A stretch of DNA of 64,000 nucleotides, taken from positions 32,001 to 96,000 of the forward strand of contig JAGLPV010000001.1 in the NCBI GenBank assembly GCA_023137195.1, read 5' to 3'. Positions 27,881 to 42,087 of the stretch are shown here, in pieces. A program made the translations under genes and the position numbers. The DNA is from Candidatus Aenigmatarchaeota archaeon (GTDB taxonomy: Archaea; EX4484-52). How positions within the stretch are numbered: position 1 is the stretch's first letter; every line of letters starts with the position of its first letter. Below the pieces are notes generated by a model. The model did no database searches and was not told the origin of the DNA. It saw only the letters and a list, made by a program, of their open reading frames with translations.

Positions 27881-28927
27881 TTAATAGCCTTCTTTGAACT
27901 CTACGTCAAATTCTTCTAAAATGATTCCGTTTTCATTGACTGCTTCTCCTATAATAGAAGCTTTGATTCCCTGTTTTTTTAGCACATCAATAATTTTATC
28001 GGCTTCTTTTGCGATAATCACGAAGCCAACGCCCATGTTGAAAGTTCTGAACATTTCTTTGTTGTCGACATTGCCTTTTTCCTGCATTGTTTTAAATATG
28101 GGTGGTATCTCTACCCACTTGTCTATTTTGTATCCGATTTTGTCATTTAACCGGGCAATGTTTAATATTCCGCCGCCTGTGATGTTTGCCAGCCCGGTAA
28201 TGTCATTAAAGCATTTGTCCAACACATCCAGGACGGGCTTTACATATATTGTTGTGGGGGTTAATATTTGCGGGGCGTATTTTTCAATATCTTCTTTGTT
28301 GCCGAGCAATACTTTTCTTGCCAGGGTTATGCCGTTTGTGTGGATGCCTGAACTTGCCAGTCCGATTATTTTATCTCCTGCCTTTATTTTATCTCCAAGA
28401 ACGACTTTGTCTTTATCTACAGTTCCCAGGACTGCACCGGCTAAATCAAAACCTTTGTCGTCAATCCCGTTTATCACTTCTTTTAATGTTGCGGTCTCCC
28501 CGCCGACAATTGCAATTTCTGCCTGCCTTGCTCCTTCGCATAATCCTTTGCCGAGTTCTAATGCCTGTTTTTGTGAATTTTTCCCGTCTGTTTTTGTCAT
28601 TGCGAGGTAATCTACTAAGCTTATGGGTTCTGCGCCGAGGCATATTACGTCATTTACGCACATTGCAATCATGTCTATGCCGACTGTGTCGTATTTGTCA
28701 ATGAGTTGTGCTACAAGCACTTTTGAGCCCACTCCGTCTGTTGAAAGGACGAGGTACTTGTCGCCGAATTCTATTAAATTTGCAAAGTGTCCTATTTTTG
28801 ACTTTACTGCTCCTACTTTGTTGTTTCGGAATTCCAGGGTTTTGCTGACTGCTGATACAAGGGATTTAATTGTGTCGGCTTCTTCATTAAAATTGACTCC
28901 TGCTTTTGCGTATGTCATTTGTTCCAT
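27881..28927 (-). CDS. purM: AIR synthetase
   Basis: TYAKAGV, STDGVGSK, VGGETA, SSGIHTNG, FNMGVG. Confidence 0.95.
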   Translation of the reverse strand: MEQMTYAKAGVNFNEEADTIKSLVSAVSKTLEFRNNKVGAVKSKIGHFANLIEFGDKYLVLSTDGVGSKVLVAQLIDKYDTVGIDMIAMCVNDVICLGAEPISLVDYLAMTKTDGKNSQKQALELGKGLCEGARQAEIAIVGGETATLKEVINGIDDKGFDLAGAVLGTVDKDKVVLGDKIKAGDKIIGLASSGIHTNGITLARKVLLGNKEDIEKYAPQILTPTTIYVKPVLDVLDKCFNDITGLANITGGGILNIARLNDKIGYKIDKWVEIPPIFKTMQEKGNVDNKEMFRTFNMGVGFVIIAKEADKIIDVLKKQGIKASIIGEAVNENGIILEEFDVEFKEGY

Positions 28928-28981
28928 AACATTAATCTATTTAGATGGTTTTTTATTTTTATCTAATAATTGATTATAATT

Positions 28982-29010
28982 CAATTAGTCCGACAGTATC
29001 TCACTAATTG
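28982..29010. repeat. Imperfect palindrome cassette (DUF1016/YhcG-like variable segment)
   Basis: CAATTAGT-13 nt-ACTAATTG; minus strand reads P-I-S-E-I-L-S-D-*-L. Confidence 0.55.
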
Positions 29011-29040
29011 GTTTTTTTGTCCTTCAAATCCTTCGGGAAT

Positions 29041-29127
29041 TTCAACTAAAAAGGAGGGTGGCATTTTGCCCCCATCCTTCTGCAAAGCTCTTATCTCTTT
29101 ACCGGTGGTTTTTTAAATATCTTTCGG
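29041..29127 (-). repeat. Non-coding copy of the BRO-N palindromic segment (copy A)
   Basis: TTTGCAGAAGGATGGGGGCAAAATGCCACCCTCCTT vs gene TTTGCAGAAGGATGGGGGCAAATTGCCACCCCCCTT; homology extends to the PK.YLK helix. Confidence 0.85.
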
Positions 29128-29540
29128 CTACCAACGCCTCGGAAAATTTGCCGCTGGCAACTGCTTTGATGAAATTAAGCTCCATGTTAACAAAATCCAT
29201 CTCTGTCTTGTCTTCGGCTTCTACATGCTTTCTTAATTCTTCCTTGCTGGATGTCCCCTCATCTGCAGATAATTTGAAATATTCCGGCACGCTGGTCTCC
29301 AGACGCCACAATACTATCTTTTTGATTTCCTCGTCAAGTTTTTTATCATTTGTCATATTATCCCCGTTCTCCAGCATTTTTATGATTTTTTCGCCAAGTT
29401 CAGAATTGTTTTTTACTTCAATCATTGCCGCATTCCATGCGTATGGTTCATCATCAATCACCACAATCACATCCTCTTTGCGGATTTTTTCAAGAAGGTT
29501 AGCATATATTCTCATGAACTTTGCTTTTTTTGTCTTCCAT
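29099..29540 (-). pseudogene. Small hypothetical gene(s), probably frameshifted or fused
   Basis: ATG at 29540 (MEDKK) is out of frame with MRIYANL by one base in an A7 run; internal MTNDKK looks like a second gene start. Confidence 0.4.
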
Positions 29541-29600
29541 GTATGATTTATACGTGCAGAATATTTAACTGTTTAACGCGCGCGCTATTTGAAAAATCAT

Positions 29601-29670
29601 TTATTTTCTTTCTCTAATTTTTTTCGTATTTTCCTTTAAATCCAGATAATTATCCGGTGAAACTATATTT
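29601..29670 (-). repeat. Duplicate of the BRO gene 3' end
   Basis: IVSPDNYLDLKENTKK vs IVSQDNYLDLKENRKK at ~30820-30885. Confidence 0.8.
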
Positions 29671-29687
29671 TTCCTATTTTGTGTCTT

Positions 29688-29747
29688 CAGTTTCAACCGT
29701 CGACAAATTGTCGATAACTCAATTTCGCTTGGTTCTGATTCTCTTTT
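29688..29747 (-). repeat. BRO-N-type palindromic cassette (ELSTICRRLKL variant)
   Basis: TCGACAA-A-TTGTCGA palindrome; minus strand reads KRESEPSEIELSTICRRLKLK. Confidence 0.7.
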
Positions 29748-29765
29748 TTCACAATATGCCAACGA

Positions 29766-29819
29766 TTTTAGTTGTACGATTTTATCGTACGGTTCAAATC
29801 CTTCTTCTTTGAGTTTTAT
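29766..29819 (-). repeat. BRO-N-type palindromic cassette (PYDKIVQLK variant)
   Basis: GTACGAT-TTT-ATCGTAC palindrome; minus strand reads KLKEEGFEPYDKIVQLK. Confidence 0.7.
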
Positions 29820-29916
29820 TTATTGTGGGGTTTAATGCCCTGTTGCTTGTGGTGGAATGTTATATTTTGTCTGAATTGATACTCTGAAGCTCTGTTTAGG
29901 GTTATTTATTGAGAAT

Positions 29917-30111
29917 TTATGAACTTTTAGATGCATTTTGTAAATTATTCAAATCAACATATTCAGATTCTGGAGTTTGTCTTGTTTCTTTTAATTCTTT
30001 TTTGGCATGGTCGCTTAATTCGTAATCCTCTTTAAGCGTGTTTTTGATAAATTCTATATCTATCTTCATTTCAAGCAGTTCCTGATGGAGTGTTTCAATT
30101 GAGATTGCCAT
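29917..30111 (-). CDS. Small antitoxin-like protein
   Basis: MAISIETLHQELLEMKIDIEFIK...LSDHAKKELKETR..EYVDL; short, helical and acidic. Confidence 0.5.
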   Translation of the reverse strand: MAISIETLHQELLEMKIDIEFIKNTLKEDYELSDHAKKELKETRQTPESEYVDLNNLQNASKSS

Positions 30112-30153
30112 ATGGAGTATAATGGACGATAAAATTATATGGTTATGTTGCAG

Positions 30154-30200
30154 TTCAACTAAAAAGGAGGGCGGCAATTTGCCTCCACCCTTCGCTAAAA
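30154..30200 (-). repeat. Non-coding copy of the BRO-N palindromic segment (copy B)
   Basis: GAAGGGTGGAGGCAAATTGCCGCCCTCCTTTTTAGTTGAA (EGWRQIAALL); shares its flank with copy A. Confidence 0.8.
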
Positions 30201-30233
30201 TTATTGTAGATTTTCATGACATAAAAATAGAAA

Positions 30234-30440
30234 CTAAACGCTTAAAACCTCGATAGGGGTGCTTTTGTTTGCGTGTTTTAAAACATTGAGTTTTTCAAAT
30301 CCAATTATGTTATTATTTTTGTCTTTTTTTAGTATTACTTCCTCTCCTGTTTCTTCGCAAATAAACTCTTTTTTTGCGTCATCAAACCATACATCTAAAG
30401 TATTTGTTTGGGTGTTTAATATGACTTTTATTTTTTCCAT
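30234..30440 (-). CDS. DUF2283-family putative antitoxin
   Basis: TLDVWF...EETGEEVILKKDKNNNIIGFE.LN. Confidence 0.7.
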   Translation of the reverse strand: MEKIKVILNTQTNTLDVWFDDAKKEFICEETGEEVILKKDKNNNIIGFEKLNVLKHANKSTPIEVLSV

Positions 30441-30763
30441 ATTTCTTCTCCTTCTTTTATTTTGTCTGTAATATATGTGGTTATGAGTATTTTTTTGATT
30501 TTATTTACAACCACGCATATATAACGCGGCTTATTATTATAAACTATTCTCCTGTAAATTAAATATACATTCTCGTCTGTTTTGCTTTGCCTTATTATTT
30601 CAGGGTCTTCTAATGTTTTTATGATGTCTTTTTCTTTGTTTTTCATCATAGGGTGTTTAATTGTGATAATATAATCCCAATAGCTTTCTGAAAGAGAGAT
30701 GCTGGTATTCAAACGAGTCATTATCTCAAATTTTATTGTTTTTTTAACTGGCTTATTTTCCAT
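30428..30763 (-). CDS. DUF4258/BECR-fold putative RNase toxin
   Basis: W.YII..KHP.M, TLEDPE.IRQS..D..VYL.YR, ITTY.TDKIKEG; overlaps the DUF2283 gene. Confidence 0.65.
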   Translation of the reverse strand: MENKPVKKTIKFEIMTRLNTSISLSESYWDYIITIKHPMMKNKEKDIIKTLEDPEIIRQSKTDENVYLIYRRIVYNNKPRYICVVVNKIKKILITTYITDKIKEGEEIWKK

Positions 30764-30814
30764 ATTATGATTTTATTGTTTTCTTTTTACTGATTATTAT
30801 AAATCCAATATTTT

Positions 30815-31715
30815 TCAACTTTTTTCCTCTAATTTCTTCCTATTTTCCTTTAAATCCAGATAATTATCCTGGGAGACTATTTTTATTCCAAAACTCTTTT
30901 CTGCATCAATTCTTGCCCTTCCTGCGACTTTTCCGCCTTCTATTGCTGTATCTTTGTTTTGGATAAAGCCCTGCGCATCTTTCTTTCGTGTTGCTTCTGT
31001 TGTTAATTTCTCGCCCAGCATTGAAAAGATAAGCTCTAAATCAGCCATCCTAAAAAACCCGAAGGGGTTTTTGGGACACCAAAAATCTATGATTTTTGCG
31101 TGTGTGATCCCTTAAATTCTGGTTTTTGAATTTTGGGTCGAGTCCTTTAATTTGTTTGTGCGCTTTAATAGGGACTCCGAAAGTGGCTTTGGAGATTTCA
31201 TTTGTCAGGATTGCGTAATCTCTTTTTTCTTCTATTCCTCTGTTTTTCCACTCTTCTGTTAATTCCTGTCTTATGGCGATTCCTCTTAAGCGTTTGTCAA
31301 TCCAGTCTTTTGGGTATCCTTTTAATTCGTAGTATTCTTTTGCCCTGTCCTGTGCGAGTTCAGGGTTTTGAATTTCCTGTATTCTTTCGTATCCGACTTT
31401 TGCGAGCCATTGCTTGAATGGTTCTGCTTTGAGGGAAGGGATTGATTGGATAAGACGAAAAGCTCCTTTCGTGGAGACGCAATTGAGCTTCTGAAGACCT
31501 CCGGCAGTTTCAACTGAAAGGGGGGTGGCAATTTGCCCCCATCCTTCTGCAAAACTTTCGTCTCTTCGTCTCATGTCCTTTAAATATCCTTTTGGGTCTT
31601 TGCTGTCAGTGAGGATGGCAATGATGTCTGCGGCAACAAACCACCATTCGTCATTAAACCATGTTCTTCTGATTTTTTGTCCCTCGAATATTGCAAGTGA
31701 GTTGGTTTGGTTCAT
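30815..31715 (-). pseudogene. BRO-N (phage antirepressor-like) protein interrupted by a 55-bp insertion
   Basis: IRRTWFNDEWWF, RLIQSIPS.KAEPFKQWLA, NLRDH|MADLELIF; removing 31049-31103 restores a 281-aa ORF. Confidence 0.88.
31049..31103. mobile_element. 55-bp double-hairpin miniature element (REP/MITE-like)
   Basis: AAAAACCC-GAAG-GGGTTTTT and CAAAAATC-TAT-GATTTTTG hairpins inserted exactly between the His and Met codons. Confidence 0.75.
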
Positions 31716-31718
31716 ATT

Positions 31719-33038
31719 TTACCTAAATTTAGTCCAATTAAAGCCTTTATCATGGCTTTTTTCAAGATATATTCCTTTATATCCGAGTATTTCTAACATA
31801 AATCTTTCAAAAATATTTAATGCTAAATAATATGCTTTTGTAGTTTTTTTAAAAGTTATTTTTTTAATTGGATTTTTTGATTTTCCTTCATGAATAACTA
31901 AATTTCTAATATCTATTAGAAGTTTCAAATTTTTTTCAGAGTATCTAAATTTTTCTAGATTAAAAATTTCTTCTAAAATTTCTTTAAAACTTTTTTTAAT
32001 TCGCTTTCCTTTTTTATTTTTTATATAATTTCCTTTATTATCTCTTTTATGTTCGTCAATCAAACAACTTTTAATATATCTTTCTTTCAATGCTTCAAAC
32101 AAGATTGCAATTAGTGCAAATTTTGCCTCTAATGTAACGCAACGAAAAGATTCTATGTAAAATTCAATTAAATCGTGAAAGTCATTGATTTTATTTAAAA
32201 TCGCTTCAAAATTTGGATATGTTTTTTCAATAACATCAGAAATAGGATTTGAATAACTAAATCGAAGAATGCCATCATTTTCCGAATAAGGATATTTTTT
32301 ATCATCAAAATAAATTCTCTTTAAGGCATTATCTTGTACAATTTCAATTTTTTCTAAAGAAACATAGTTTGCAGTATAGAATGACAATAAATACAACAAC
32401 TGATGTATAGTTTTTGTTTTATTAGAAATATAAATAGAATTAGTTTCGAATCGAATAATAGCAGTAGTCTGACATATTCCATAATACTCTAAAAGATCTT
32501 TAGAATTTTTATCATAATAGTATGGACATACCCTATATTTTTGTTTGTCAATAAAAAAATCCCTTTTGTAAACACTTATTTTTCCAAGATTCATATTATT
32601 CAAATAATATCTTACTTCTTTTTTGCCTCTAATAAATTTGCCTTCTTTTATTTCTAAATCACATGGAAGAAATTTCCATATTTGACGCCCTTCTGACCCA
32701 CATAGAATATTTTTTTTAATTACAATTTTCTCTTCATTTTCACTTATGCCTTCAAATCGGAATATTTTTTTTGATATTTTTTCGTCTATATCTAGAAAAA
32801 TATTATTATCCGAATATAAAAAAAACTCTTTAACTCCATTAGAATAAATAATTAATCGAAAATTACCAGATATTACCAAACCCTTTTTATTAATTGTTTT
32901 GCCTTTGCCAGAATATTCTTCAGATTTTTTAATTTGCTTTTTTTGTTCCGCACATGTTTTTTTTAGTTCTTCGTTTTCTTTTCTTAATTTTTCATTTTCT
33001 TCCACAAGATTATTATTTTCTTCTATTTTACTCATCAC
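31719..33038 (-). CDS. HEPN-domain (ApeA-like) putative defence RNase
   Basis: C-terminal RNLVIH (Rx4H), preceded by FALIAILFEAL; very AT-rich. Confidence 0.6.
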   Translation of the reverse strand: MMSKIEENNNLVEENEKLRKENEELKKTCAEQKKQIKKSEEYSGKGKTINKKGLVISGNFRLIIYSNGVKEFFLYSDNNIFLDIDEKISKKIFRFEGISENEEKIVIKKNILCGSEGRQIWKFLPCDLEIKEGKFIRGKKEVRYYLNNMNLGKISVYKRDFFIDKQKYRVCPYYYDKNSKDLLEYYGICQTTAIIRFETNSIYISNKTKTIHQLLYLLSFYTANYVSLEKIEIVQDNALKRIYFDDKKYPYSENDGILRFSYSNPISDVIEKTYPNFEAILNKINDFHDLIEFYIESFRCVTLEAKFALIAILFEALKERYIKSCLIDEHKRDNKGNYIKNKKGKRIKKSFKEILEEIFNLEKFRYSEKNLKLLIDIRNLVIHEGKSKNPIKKITFKKTTKAYYLALNIFERFMLEILGYKGIYLEKSHDKGFNWTKFR

Positions 33039-38462: not shown

Positions 38463-39239
38463 TCAAAACTCCTCTTCAACATACTTCACAGCATTCTCAA
38501 ATATCGCCAGCCCTGAAGTCGAACCCACAGACTCATCCGAAGCCCGCTCTGGGTGAGGCATCATCCCAAGAATCGTCCCTGTCGAGTTGCATATCCCTGC
38601 AATATCATACACCGAACCATTAGGATTAAACGGATATTTCCCGTTTGCAGGTCTTGCTTTATCATCCCCGTAAATAAAGACAATCTGGTCATTTTCAATC
38701 AATTTCATCAGCAGTTCCTGAGATATCTTGAAATTTCCTTCCCCGTGAGCGATAGGCATCTTTAAAGTGCGGTCATAAGGAATTCCTTTTGCAAATATGC
38801 ATTTCCCCCTGCTGGCATTAATCAAATTAACGCTCCTGCTCTCGAACGTCAGTTTTTCATTTGTTGCAAGAGCCGCCTGCTGTGTTTTGCTTATGCCGTC
38901 AATTCCCGGCAAAAGTCCTGCTTCGACCAATATCTGGAACCCATTGCAGATTCCGATTATCGGCTTTTTTGCATTTACAAATTCTTCAACATCGGCAGAA
39001 AGTTCCTTCATCAGTTTCTTTGCAAATACTACTCCTGAGCGGATATGGTCTGAATTTGAAAACCCGCCGGGAAATACCAAAATATGAAAGTCATTTAGTT
39101 TTTCTTCTTTTGACAGGAATTTGTTTAAGTGAATTACTCTTGAGTTTGCCCCGAGTTTATTGAAAATGTAGTTTGTCTCCCTGTCGCAGTTTGTGCCGGG
39201 TTCGCGCAGGACGCAGACTTTTATTTTATTTTTTTCCAT
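38463..39239 (-). CDS. purQ: FGAM synthase glutaminase subunit
   Basis: PGTNCD, PGGFS, GICNGFQ, AHGEG, MMPHPER. Confidence 0.96.
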   Translation of the reverse strand: MEKNKIKVCVLREPGTNCDRETNYIFNKLGANSRVIHLNKFLSKEEKLNDFHILVFPGGFSNSDHIRSGVVFAKKLMKELSADVEEFVNAKKPIIGICNGFQILVEAGLLPGIDGISKTQQAALATNEKLTFESRSVNLINASRGKCIFAKGIPYDRTLKMPIAHGEGNFKISQELLMKLIENDQIVFIYGDDKARPANGKYPFNPNGSVYDIAGICNSTGTILGMMPHPERASDESVGSTSGLAIFENAVKYVEEEF

Positions 39240-39241
39240 AT

Positions 39242-41632
39242 TTATTTTAGACCTCCAAGCCAGCTTTGCTTTAATGTACCAATATCTTCATCTATTATGG
39301 TTTTTTCTTTTTCGCCTGTTTTAATTATCACTTTTTCTTCTTCAATTGTTTTTCCGACTAGAGATGCAAAGTCTCCCAGTTCCTGCTCAAACTTTTTTGC
39401 ATTTCCTTTTTCAACTTCAACCAAAAACCTGCTGTTTGATTCTGAAAAGAGAATCTGGTAATCTTTGAGCGGTCTGTTGCATATTGCTTTTGACAAATCA
39501 ATTTCTGCTCCGATGCCGTCAAAGCACATTTCCGAAAGGGCAACTGCAAGACCCCCTTCAGACAGGTCATGGCAGGTCAAGACAAGATTGCCATCCATTG
39601 CATTAATGAGCAGGTCGTATATTTTTTTTGCATGTTTTGTCCTGACTTTCGGGACATTTGCACCCAAAAATCCTTTAATTTTGTAAAAATGAGAACCGCC
39701 AAGTTCATTGCATGTTGTTCCAATTAGGTAAATATTGTTGCCGGGTTTTTTGAAATTCATAGATACTTTATTTTGAGCATCAGGGATTAACCCTATTGCA
39801 GTAATCACAAGTGTCGGAGTAACGGGACCTTCTTCAGACTGGTTGTACAGGCTGTCCTTTCCGCTGATGAAAGGAGTCTTGTATTCCATTGCTGTGTCGT
39901 AGCATGCCTGCGAGGCACGGACAAGACCGCCAAGATTTTGCGGTATCTGGGGATTGCCCCAAGAGTAATTATCCAATAGTGCAATTCTTCTTCCGCCGAC
40001 AGCAGTGTTGTTCCTTACAGCTTCATCTATTGCTGAAGTTGCCATGTGATAAGGGTCGATTTTTCCGTATTCCGGGTTAAATCCGCATGATATTACAACG
40101 CCTTTTTTGCTCTTCAATAATGGTTTTACAACGCTTGCGTCTCCCGGGGAGTCTTCTTTTTTCCCGTGCAGAGGACCGAGGGCTGTTCCTGCCCTCACGG
40201 TTGAATCATAACTGTGGATTACTTTTTCCTTGCTTGCAACATTCGGGGAAGACAATATTTTAGCTAACTCCTTATTGTAATTGTCGGATTCAACAATTTT
40301 TGGTTCTGATAAATCAGGTTTTTTCCATTCTGCTTTTTTGTAAGTATTTGGAACGGCGTTAAATAAAAAGTCAATATCTATGCTTGCGACTTCATCCCCC
40401 GCGTATTTCAGGACAAGATTTTTTTCTTCTGTGAATTCGCCTATTTTGACGACTTCAACATCTTCTGCTTCAAATATTTTGGCTACTTTTTCGTAATTTT
40501 CTTTTGGAACTAAAATAAGCATCCTTTCCTGTGATTCGCTTATCCATATTTCCCATGGCTTTAATCCCTTGTATTTTAGAGGGACTTTGTCTAAATCCAC
40601 AATTGTTCCCAGATCATAAGTATGGCACATTTCACCTACTGCTGAAGAAAGTCCGCCTCCGCCGAGGTCTGTTATGCCGGAGCCAAGGTTTTTTGCGCTA
40701 ACTTCCATTATTCCTCTCATCACTTTTTCCTCTTCTATGGGGTCGCCTATCTGGACAGCAGAGCCGTTTATCTCTTCTGATTCTGTGCTTAAATTAGCAG
40801 ATGCAAAAGATACGCCGTGTATGCCGTCTTTTCCGGTTCTTCCACCGACAAGAACCAGATAATCTCCGTTTTTTGCTTCTCTTACATATTTGCTTTTTTC
40901 CAACAGTCCGAAGCATCCGCAGAAGACAAGAGGGTTAGTAGTATAAGATTTGTCAAAATAAATTGCGCCGTTTACTGTGGGGATTCCCATCTTGTTGCCG
41001 TAATCTCCGATTCCCCGGACAACGCCTTTGAATAAATATTTTGGGTGTTTTGTGCCTTTTGGCAGGTTCTCATAACTCATGTCAGTATCTCCGAAGCAAA
41101 GTACATTTGTATTTGCAAATGGCTCTGCCCATACTCCTAAGACATCACGGATGCATCCGCCAACGCCTGTTGCCGCTCCGCCAAATGGTTCTAAGGCAGA
41201 AGGATGGTTGTGCGTTTCAACTTTTACTGCAATGACATAATCATCAACAAAATCCACCATGCCTGCATTGTCGTCAAACACGCTGAAGCACCAGGATCTG
41301 TCTAATTCTTTTGTTGCGCGCATGATTGTCTGCTTTAGCATATTTTTTAGTTTGCCTTCTTTGTCTAAAGTAATACTGTCTGTTTCCAAAACGTTTTTAT
41401 CCATGTAAATGTCATGTCGGAATGTTTTGTGTATGCAGTGTTCTGACCAGGACTGGTTGAAAATTTCTATCTCAACATCTGTCGGGTTTCTCTGCTCTTT
41501 TGAAAAGTATTTCTGTATTTCAAGGAGTTCATCCTTGTTTAATGCAAGGTTTCTTTGGGTGTTTATTTTGTTGAGTTCTTCTTCTGTCTTGCCTTGCATT
41601 TCTATTTCTCTGATGTCTTTGTTGTATTTCAT
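39242..41632 (-). CDS. purL: FGAM synthase large subunit
   Basis: WSEHC.HK, ETHNHPS, DLGGGGLSS, SESQERM, ISGKDSL. Confidence 0.96.
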   Translation of the reverse strand: MKYNKDIREIEMQGKTEEELNKINTQRNLALNKDELLEIQKYFSKEQRNPTDVEIEIFNQSWSEHCIHKTFRHDIYMDKNVLETDSITLDKEGKLKNMLKQTIMRATKELDRSWCFSVFDDNAGMVDFVDDYVIAVKVETHNHPSALEPFGGAATGVGGCIRDVLGVWAEPFANTNVLCFGDTDMSYENLPKGTKHPKYLFKGVVRGIGDYGNKMGIPTVNGAIYFDKSYTTNPLVFCGCFGLLEKSKYVREAKNGDYLVLVGGRTGKDGIHGVSFASANLSTESEEINGSAVQIGDPIEEEKVMRGIMEVSAKNLGSGITDLGGGGLSSAVGEMCHTYDLGTIVDLDKVPLKYKGLKPWEIWISESQERMLILVPKENYEKVAKIFEAEDVEVVKIGEFTEEKNLVLKYAGDEVASIDIDFLFNAVPNTYKKAEWKKPDLSEPKIVESDNYNKELAKILSSPNVASKEKVIHSYDSTVRAGTALGPLHGKKEDSPGDASVVKPLLKSKKGVVISCGFNPEYGKIDPYHMATSAIDEAVRNNTAVGGRRIALLDNYSWGNPQIPQNLGGLVRASQACYDTAMEYKTPFISGKDSLYNQSEEGPVTPTLVITAIGLIPDAQNKVSMNFKKPGNNIYLIGTTCNELGGSHFYKIKGFLGANVPKVRTKHAKKIYDLLINAMDGNLVLTCHDLSEGGLAVALSEMCFDGIGAEIDLSKAICNRPLKDYQILFSESNSRFLVEVEKGNAKKFEQELGDFASLVGKTIEEEKVIIKTGEKEKTIIDEDIGTLKQSWLGGLK

Positions 41633-42087
41633 AGTATGGAGTATTCTTCTGTAATTGGATTGGAGAGCAATTCTTTTGCTATTTTTTCAAGCAATTCTTT
41701 ATCCAGAGACTCTCCTTTCAATAAATATATTTTTGATGTTTTGATGCTCTTTGTTTTATATCCTAAATCAGCGAAAGTGGAGGATGTTGAATTTCCCAAC
41801 GGGTCGCTTAGCTTTCCTTTTATTTCAATTGTGCTGTAATCTCCAAAGTCCTGTTTTTCCCCGGTTTTCTGGATTTGGTATTCATTTATTACTGGGTTTA
41901 CTATTGTTTTTTTTGCGATAGTTTCTATCTGGTTTTTGTCGGATATGTCGATGTCAATAATATAAGAAGTTGCTGTTTTTACAGTGGTTATTTGAGTATA
42001 GCCTAGTTTTTTTAGGGTTTTGAGAACCGTGTTTGCCTGGCTGTCAAGAACGCCCGGGAGAAAACCGACTGTTATTTTGTATTGCAT
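41629..42087 (-). CDS. purS: FGAM synthase PurS subunit, tandem-duplicated domain
   Basis: Two halves: VLDSQA...VNPVINEY and LSDPLG...SNPITEEY. Confidence 0.85.
   Translation of the reverse strand: MQYKITVGFLPGVLDSQANTVLKTLKKLGYTQITTVKTATSYIIDIDISDKNQIETIAKKTIVNPVINEYQIQKTGEKQDFGDYSTIEIKGKLSDPLGNSTSSTFADLGYKTKSIKTSKIYLLKGESLDKELLEKIAKELLSNPITEEYSIL

Follow-up and report, generated by a model that had tools for sequence, protein, structure and literature searches.

The Bro-N / PDC-S13 gene of the window, by which we mean the whole analysed stretch of 64,000 nucleotides, carries an imperfect palindrome within its coding sequence, and comparison with homologous genes indicates that this palindrome is most likely the double-stranded DNA operator of the very protein that the gene encodes. 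Downstream lie non-coding pieces with further palindromes (Table 1), which, judged from their sequences, are most likely the remains of stacked and deleted sister genes of other specificities. Taken as a whole, we consider it fairly probable that genes reading their own sites have swapped reader and site as one module, and that sites were left behind at this locus.

The locus and its Bro-N gene

The pieces named in an earlier note on this DNA lie where it had placed them, co-oriented on the minus strand. Pieces C, D and E are contiguous and fall within one open frame (29601-29816). The arrangement is not an assembly artefact, as it is covered by exact contigs of runs X1, which may be the run behind this assembly, and X2, both of one study. 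The locus differs among close relatives, and no island is present ahead of purM in the same-genus genome G002, the only one in which this region could be compared (G001 and G003 have contig ends there or are unassembled). The 55-bp insertion that splits the gene recurs, as an 84% copy, at the same site in a G021 gene and is missing from related contigs. The 111-aa DUF4258-like gene is probably a toxin-antitoxin-like partner of the DUF2283 gene. The labels radA, isopentenyl phosphate kinase, UbiD, RhuM and MNT-HEPN are putative assignments from the sequences.

Table 1. Features of the accessory region next to purM (positions in the window)
Feature	Position	Strand	Description
purM	27881..28927	-	right border of the accessory island separating purM from purS-purL-purQ (38463-42087)
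Piece X	28982..29010	-	13+3+13 palindrome, YhcG/DUF1016 type
Piece A	29017..29124	-	free site of the gene's own class (29051-29079) and decayed helix-coding part (stop codon, +1 T)
138-aa ORF	29099..29515	-	fused version of the 62+78-aa gene pair of contig C2 and relatives; 84% DNA identity to C2
Piece E	29600..29674	-	copy of the gene's 3' end, without palindrome; 87-88% match to the G001 orthologue's 3' end plus the bases that follow it
Piece D	29664..29769	-	free site, KDYWYR class (29693-29721), and frameshifted helix-coding remnant
Piece C	29766..29821	-	free site, (K/R)RYWSD class (29768-29796), without helix-coding part
64-aa gene	29917..30111	-	without family match
Piece B	30150..30200	-	free site of the gene's own class (30164-30192), without helix-coding part; +1 T common to A and B
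DUF2283 gene, 68 aa	30234..30440	-	E 7e-7
111-aa gene	30428..30763	-	weak DUF4258 match, E 0.07, under the curated cut-off
Spacer	30756..30835	-	in sister species G001 ahead of the orthologous gene; 88-90% identity
C-terminal part of Bro-N gene, 77 aa	30815..31048	-	PDC-S13 positions 204-277, E 1.7e-17
55-bp double-hairpin insertion	31048..31102	-	interrupts the gene immediately ahead of a natural Met codon; fold z -5.2
Bro-N / PDC-S13 gene, N-terminal part, 221 aa	31050..31715	-	intact DNA-binding domain; helix allele KGYLKD
Coding palindrome of the gene, 13+3+13	31518..31546	-	putative operator of the gene itself

Phages, archaea and bacteria commonly encode Bro-N proteins. The gene matches Pfam Bro-N (E 9.7e-13), PHROG 15286 and PDC-S13 of PADLOC (E 5e-81), the last over its whole length in two parts (positions 1-206 and 204-277 of 286). 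No NCBIfam match was found for the gene, and its product had no match by sequence in the PDB. The predicted structure (pLDDT 87) places a helix at residues 41-54, and the model and a fold search, in which it resembled DdrC, Dachshund and Mbp1, suggest a helix-turn-helix DNA-binding domain. The genome contains five full-length PDC-S13-type genes. As far as the available text of its description goes, PDC-S13 is embedded in other operons and has the status of a candidate defence gene only (bioRxiv 10.1101/2024.01.29.577857), and the available parts of two sources report domain swapping for Bro-network proteins (bioRxiv 10.1101/2024.01.29.577857; PMC10111431).

The coding palindrome and the predicted recognition helix

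The exact 29-bp palindrome of the gene pairs 10 of 13 bases, and the corresponding Watson-Crick counts are 10 for B, 9 for C, 8 for D, 11 for A and 10 for X. Such palindromes exceed chance: three with at least 10 pairs occur in 28928-30240 compared with 0.24 in shuffles, none of 300 shuffles reaching three. A nearest-allele scan of the genome returned 12 sites, against 0 and 0 in two shuffles. Among unique homologous genes, 216 of 217 have a palindrome with at least 9 of 13 pairs (L250 was left out of this set, and the site of L040 was placed by hand), with a mean of 10.8 pairs against 7.2 at the best other window of the same genes. The inverted repeat is thus conserved inside the ORF of the homologues, and it is constrained as DNA. 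It is read in two reading frames (173 and 43 genes), and both arms changed in 251 of 845 cells compared with 91 in shuffles. The Thr codon of the palindrome is ACA in 108 of 108 cases and elsewhere in 39%; the Cys codon is TGT in 107 of 108 and elsewhere in 52%, the single TGC belonging to an Asp47 gene.

Mutual information with the bases of the half-site is highest for residues 43, 46 and 47, followed by 40 and 50. Asp47 is accompanied by C+3 in 119 of 120 half-sites and none of the 312 others has this base, while Asp43 occurs with C+4 in 62 of 64. Both pairings are seen on both sides of a starred tree split, and a single clade of Asp47 rows was rejected (p-AU 0.031). The code is incomplete, as Gln43 is accompanied by A+4 in 57 of 58 half-sites in one class and in 10 of 66 in the other; a further gap is that Lys47 pairs with T or G. 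Helix and site are tightly linked, and inheritance alone therefore yields covariation. On the backbone tree all 21 independent Asp47/C+3 pairs agree, which we do not take as proof of the code because these pairs count module transfers; the tree of the remaining N-terminal domain has only four independent pairs on supported branches, of which four agree (p 0.125).

Since its bases covary with exposed residues on the predicted recognition helix, we infer that the palindrome is the protein's own double-stranded operator. Among the roles that the earlier note had suggested for the pieces, that of operator or decoy sites agrees best with the data. The literature search found no described binding site for the Bro-N/PDC-S13 family. 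Should the palindrome be the operator, more than a dozen reader-site pairs could be read directly from the genes, by which the specificity code becomes testable, and the genes could be a source of orthogonal, promoter-independent repressors.

Allele exchange and the origin of the free sites

The peptides of the pieces fall in one hypervariable block, and YDKIVQLK and ELSTICRQLK, which the earlier note had given as alternative sequences, turned out to be real alleles of this same position. The block is exchanged as a patch between the conserved flanks of intact genes. There are 109 gene pairs that are at least 85% identical in backbone yet differ in half-site, and in the 14 pairs examined the patches have variable breakpoints but always carry helix and palindrome, the shortest extending from -62 to +7. 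Mismatched helix-site pairs are almost absent. At one locus three species have three alleles. Paralogues within one genome tend to differ in specificity type, as only 1 of 56 within-genome pairs is of the same type where 4.9 were expected (P 0.028).

Four of the downstream pieces are PDC-S13-type sites from three allele classes. Piece X, which had been noted earlier as being of a different type, agrees at 23 of 29 positions with the YhcG/DUF1016 coding palindromes of L306 and L309. The assembly itself, which is 85% complete, contains no DUF1016 gene and no gene able to read C, D or X, and the degenerate pattern of X had no match in viral contigs.

The earlier claim that only the palindromic segment is retained stands as a general tendency: the site was kept in 10 of 13 short gene fragments compared with 1.4 expected, and a simulation showed no detection bias. 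At this locus it does not stand for A and D, which keep a decayed copy of the helix-coding DNA besides the palindrome. Of the 30 rows in this survey, 17 were set aside because they were A-rich chance matches, belonged to split genes or were contig ends; among these, L004 (75% over 71 bases, without site) may be real, which would give 10 of 14. Loci L261-L280 were chosen by a palindrome model and were excluded from this count. A second, smaller survey gave one fragment with a site and one without. Decay can be followed at one locus, where G027 has a truncated gene and G025 a 69-bp remnant. Similar arrays exist elsewhere, although the majority of the order's 42 genomes show no free site. Other genomes have compact rows of up to seven sites ahead of the gene, mostly sites for other alleles, and the row units are conserved at orthologous loci. 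Two rows, of seven and of three sites, precede orthologous genes, and each contains a site like the allele of the other gene. In the literature covered, mostly papers available without subscription, no coding palindromes or operator rows were described for Bro-N/PDC-S13, RhuM, DinD or YhcG.

The mechanism that we propose is as follows. The PDC-S13 gene would encode a winged-helix DNA-binding protein, the recognition helix of which reads a palindromic double-stranded site placed 40-70 bases behind its own codons. Reader and site would form one module, swapped between genes by homologous recombination as a patch of 70-220 bp, and such swapping would lead to many specificity groups. When bound, the protein most likely acts as a roadblock that limits transcription through its own gene. 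With the site inside, a gene would control itself wherever it is inserted, and another gene sharing its specificity would be redundant or silenced. At the locus in the purine operon, genes of several specificities would have arrived in succession, and deletions would have taken the gene bodies and left the sites, which were spared most likely because they are still bound. The neighbouring protein may bind A and B; the proteins that bind C, D and X would differ in specificity and either be present in the cell or come in on mobile DNA. Free sites might then serve as operators or as sinks. Both the retention of sites and the rows with as many as seven of them suggest cross-talk among specificity groups. 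An extension that we regard as unlikely is that the free sites are an adaptive memory, in which the locus keeps an operator of each specificity met, from more than one family (Bro-N and YhcG), and the row senses or soaks up matching proteins from viruses or other mobile DNA. If true, rival regulators would be recorded without a guide and in DNA alone, and this record would be coupled to a natural library of reader-site modules with a readable protein-DNA code.

It seems rather unlikely that the coding palindrome is an operator and the free pieces are functionless relics, the palindrome being spared mechanically because breaks fall close to a site that is bound or forms a hairpin, or the pieces being too young to decay. 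Short shared words mark the junctions of C, D and E, which resemble a collapsed tandem pair, and intact tandem pairs of unlike alleles are known (L280 and contig C4). The variable locus and the missing cognate gene for C, D and X in the 85% complete assembly would also suit relics, and piece C, with 49 of 49 bases the same as in the intact G001 orthologue, may be merely young. However, the cores of the four window pieces are nearly intact (14, 12, 14 and 14 of 14) while their flanks drop to 0.40-0.75, and the symmetry of free sites is close to that of coding ones (6.2 and 6.4 of 7 pairs). The compact rows of three and seven bare sites with conserved units at orthologous loci are also difficult to reconcile with relics, and the extra T common to A and B suggests copying after coding was lost.

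The earlier note had also raised silent donor cassettes, copied into the gene to switch its specificity, which we find improbable. The segment does move as a patch between near-identical genes, one locus has three alleles in three species, piece C is identical to the allele found in the G001 orthologue, and the L236 row has sites like the L241 allele and vice versa. But every exchanged patch examined includes the helix, which B and C lack, while A has a stop and a frameshift and D a frameshift, and the pieces are without flanks for recombination with the gene. Replacement of the site only would create the mismatched pairs that are almost absent, and the five full-length paralogues would be better donors. 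Among the matches listed in contigs of four runs, there was no alternative allele on the exact flanks of the gene.

We consider it very improbable that the palindrome acts as a single-stranded hairpin, be it an mRNA element, a small RNA or a template-switch product, rather than as protein-bound double-stranded DNA. A 13-bp stem with a 3-base loop can be folded, and the earlier suggestion to compare folding with shuffled controls found C, D and X below the shuffles (z -3.4, -2.5 and -2.3) but weaker values for the gene (-1.2) and for A and B (-1.5). G.T mismatches are as frequent as A.C (24 and 25), giving no RNA-strand preference, and the Rfam search had no match apart from a chance one (E 4.6). 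Perfect symmetry is found in 3% of coding and 0 of 22 free sites, class-specific mismatches persist across phyla, and copying errors fail to explain the link with helix residues. Least probable of all are attC-like recombination sites bounding gene cassettes: the palindromes alternate with small genes and accessory-gene junctions lie nearby, but the attC core motif pair (RYYYAAC ... GTTRRRY) is not found in 28900-31800, no integron integrase exceeds the cut-off in the 85% complete assembly, which has two ordinary tyrosine recombinases elsewhere, the exchange breakpoints are scattered and away from the palindrome, and neighbouring sites are unlike in sequence.

Comparison with known systems

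In phage immunity groups such as the lambda/434 repressor-operator pairs and in plasmid incompatibility, repressor and operator diversify together and copies in the same cell tend to differ. In these systems the operator lies outside the gene, whereas that of PDC-S13 would be part of the coding sequence beside the reading helix, with both contained in one short patch. The silent cassettes of pilS/vls, diversity-generating retroelements (DGRs) and integron arrays likewise place non-coding versions of a variable segment close to a gene. Unlike in pilS/vls, the pieces described here have no usable donor flanks, no intact helix and no in-frame whole exchanged unit. As regards DGRs, differences between alleles involve all four bases as well as indels, and the 85% complete assembly has no PF00078 match for a reverse transcriptase.

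The closest precedent for an operator inside its own ORF appears to be C.Kpn2I, according to the available text a helix-turn-helix protein with a binding site within its own ORF and a transcription roadblock, which its authors consider suited to horizontal transfer (PMC6237814). Binding was shown for C.Kpn2I and is presumed for PDC-S13. C.Kpn2I differs in its XRE-like fold, single specificity and link to restriction-modification, and it is without an allelic series, a swap of reader and site, or rows for other alleles. The available parts of the PDC-S13 and PHROG 15286 descriptions give no binding site, palindrome or function (bioRxiv 10.1101/2024.01.29.577857; PMC10111431), and we found no description in the literature of what appears here to be a self-reading reader-site module with an allelic series and rows of sites.

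The available text on DdrC describes a Deinococcus-specific protein that binds breaks and has a negatively charged winged helix reported as not DNA-binding (PMC9303277), which counts against DNA reading by a related fold. DdrC of Deinococcus radiodurans has the same two-domain layout as the predicted model, a winged helix and a four-helix bundle (Foldseek E 6.8e-7; VIA Z 11.9 over 207 residues, rmsd 11.9; 14% identity). This fold would connect an orphan repair protein with a very large family.

Setting and product of the Bro-N gene

The window is of archaeal origin, as it contains TBP and CDC48 genes, and its assembly (1.42 Mb) is 85% complete. An accessory island separates purS-purL-purQ from purM. 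Everything in it lies on the minus strand: Fic and type IIG restriction-modification genes, two genes of unknown identity, the Bro-N gene, the palindromic pieces and small genes. This arrangement was reproduced without differences by contigs from two runs, X1 and X2. The spot differs among close relatives, since in G002 (same genus) purM is not preceded by any island and one contig of run X3 joins purM straight to a Bro 3' end.

Features of the window, of its own assembly (G000; contigs C1-C13) and of homologue loci (L) in other genomes
Sequence	Coordinates	Feature
Window	27881-28927	purM
Window	28982-29010	Piece X
Window	29017-29124	Piece A
Window	29099-29540	Three-gene module copy
Window	29577-29586	GC-dinucleotide run
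Window	29600-29674	Piece E, 3'-end copy
Window	29664-29769	Piece D
Window	29766-29821	Piece C
Window	30150-30200	Piece B
Window	30756-30835	Spacer
Window	30815-31048	Bro-N gene, C-terminal part
Window	31048-31102	55-bp double hairpin
Window	31050-31715 (-)	Bro-N gene, N-terminal part
Window	31719-33038	439-aa gene
Window	38463-42087	purS-purL-purQ
C1	101851	RhuM-like gene (presumed)
C2	35048-36122	Three-gene module
C4	54085-55219	Shortened copy, then full gene
C13	995	RhuM-like gene (presumed)
L033	363-5825	PDC-S13 gene between cas9 and cas1; two free palindromes before it, after cas9
L082	1234-2082	PDC-S13 gene, modelled
L236	3785-3907	Three different bare palindromes between toxin-antitoxin-like gene end and PDC-S13 gene
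L241	1980-2293	Seven, same setting
L296	1038-1092; 3246-3301	55-bp element

Profile matches identify the Bro-N gene as PDC-S13 / PHROG 15286. It is interrupted by a 55-bp double hairpin that leaves the DNA-binding domain whole and, because this element provides a stop and ends immediately before a natural Met, may still yield two pieces. In G021, from another family, a PDC-S13 gene carries this element, 84% identical, at the matching codon boundary, and the element also lies at a second position of that locus (L296).

The intact orthologue in the sister species G001 was predicted (pLDDT 87) to combine a winged helix with a helical bundle, with DdrC as nearest fold, followed by Dachshund/Ski and Mbp1. 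Helix 41-54 comes after the turn, and its variable residues (42, 43, 46, 47 and 50) are spaced like those with which helix-turn-helix proteins read bases. On contig C4 a shortened N-terminal copy (~82 aa, other allele) immediately precedes a full gene; such copies, with the DNA-binding domain only, recur across the order and may still act as repressors. In its two-domain fold the L082 model matches DdrC from Deinococcus (Foldseek E 6.8e-7; VIA Z 11.9, rmsd 11.9, 207 aligned), which PMC9303277 describes as Deinococcus-specific and without structural homologues.

The coding palindrome and its predicted recognition helix

The palindrome is a family trait and is conserved as DNA. At its position, 9 or more of the 13 possible pairs form in 216 of 217 unique genes (259 loci plus G000), and in the first 81 genes the mean was 10.8 pairs, versus 7.2 at the best other window of the same genes. 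Two reading frames pass through it (173 and 43 genes), and its arms co-vary in 251 cells versus 91 when shuffled (reached in 0/500 shuffles), a count inflated by kinship. Synonymous codons are invariant within it: Thr is ACA in 108/108 (39% elsewhere) and Cys is TGT in 107/108 (52% elsewhere). Mismatch types are balanced (G.T 24, A.C 25), which suits a duplex site better than an RNA stem, and the palindrome had no credible Rfam match. In-frame 13+3+13 palindromes of the same kind occur in two G000 genes outside the window (C1 and C13), which we take to be RhuM-like; the kind is also found in an ORF6N gene (L266) and in DUF1016 genes (L298-L322).

The palindrome bases change together with the predicted reading helix. 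Half-site bases shared most mutual information with residues 43, 46 and 47, the best corrected pair being residue 47 with position +3. Cytosine is at +3 in 119 of the 120 Asp47 half-sites and in 0/312 others, cytosine is at +4 in 62/64 Asp43 half-sites, and both Asn47 half-sites have A at +3; Asp-cytosine and Asn-adenine are standard contacts. Both Asp rules are valid on either side of a starred split, and a test on 70 representatives, limited to 46 columns, rejected a single Asp47 clade (p-AU 0.031). Against a helix-site code, linkage by itself produces covariation, the N-domain tree has only four supported independent pairs (p 0.125), Gln43 and Lys47 are ambiguous, and the DdrC winged helix is reported as non-DNA-binding in PMC9303277.

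Helix and palindrome are exchanged as one unit. The backbone tree implies 43 changes of helix class and the N-domain tree 7, and the half-site differs in 109 gene pairs of at least 85% backbone identity. The differing patch covers helix and palindrome in 14/14 examined pairs, with scattered breakpoints, and measures ~70-220 bp in pairs near-identical on both flanks (shortest, -62 to +7). Three species of the genus have three alleles at one locus. As in immunity groups, PDC-S13 genes within a genome rarely share type (1/56 pairs vs 4.9 expected, P 0.028; 54 genes, 23 genomes).

Origin and retention of the free sites

The palindromic pieces that the earlier note described are all present, each built around an imperfect 13+3+13 palindrome in which 8-11 positions pair, above the shuffled expectation. 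Pieces A and B belong to the class of the neighbouring gene and have an extra T in common. Over 49 bases piece C has exactly the sequence of the G001 orthologue's allele, E corresponds to the 3' end of that gene together with the bases downstream, and the spacer matches the one upstream of it. Piece D is of the same class as another G001 gene. From these matches C-D-E looks like a collapsed tandem gene pair; intact pairs with differing alleles exist (L280; contig C4). Piece X resembles YhcG/DUF1016 coding palindromes (23/29; 25 loci checked), a family present in 19/42 genomes of the order; no such gene was found in the 85% complete G000. One locus shows a decay series, with an 89-aa truncated gene in G027 and a 69-bp remnant in G025.

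The site is retained more than the rest of the gene. Short fragments in G000 and the 259 loci cover it in 10/13 cases versus 1.4 expected (10/14 with one doubtful row; 6/8 outside the window); the loci were picked by protein match, and simulation indicated no detection bias. A further 130 kb held one fragment with the site and one without. The site cores of A, B, C and D score 14, 12, 14 and 14 out of 14, their flanks 0.40-0.75 (intact baseline 0.71-0.78; shuffled ~0.45).

A covariance-model search of 42 genomes gave additional free sites in G025, G027, G029, G006 and G010. Comparable arrays, which the earlier note had suggested looking for, stand immediately before the genes at the orthologous loci L241 and L236. 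The first site of these rows overlaps the stop codon of the upstream gene. The two genes carry different alleles, and each row has a site 27-28/29 like the other gene's. Outside the window, 15/18 free sites are at most 22/29 like the adjacent gene's site.

Operators and alternative explanations

We consider it probable that the palindrome serves as operator for the very protein its gene encodes. In this reading, the free pieces would be operators left by sister genes that have died, retained since proteins still bind these predicted sites. An operator within its own ORF is already known, from C.Kpn2I (PMC6237814), and the same is proposed for PDC-S13. The literature searched contained no paper on PDC-S13 coding palindromes or rows of free sites, and no precedent for reader-plus-site patches that form an allelic series and come with retained rows of sites belonging to other alleles. 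The window contributes a cellular, archaeal case with a decay series, a retention test, patch boundaries and allele overdispersion.

That the free pieces are neutral relics seems unlikely, though it is the strongest alternative. Donor cassettes, as suggested earlier, are improbable, because the pieces are without usable helix and flanks. A hairpin or template-switch explanation of the palindrome fits poorly and is slightly less credible still, and the attC-like sites also raised in the earlier note, a poor fit to the evidence, are the least credible.

Immediately upstream of the Bro-N gene, the low-GC 439-aa gene has weak matches only (DUF3644, E 6e-5) and is a possible defence gene. The GC-dinucleotide run, conspicuous amid AT-rich DNA, precedes a 138-aa ORF and is missing at the corresponding G001 position. 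An unnamed module of three genes (62, 78 and 218 aa) recurs beside Bro remnants (window, C2, L271, L272 and L086); in the window copy the first two genes are fused and piece A takes the place of the third.
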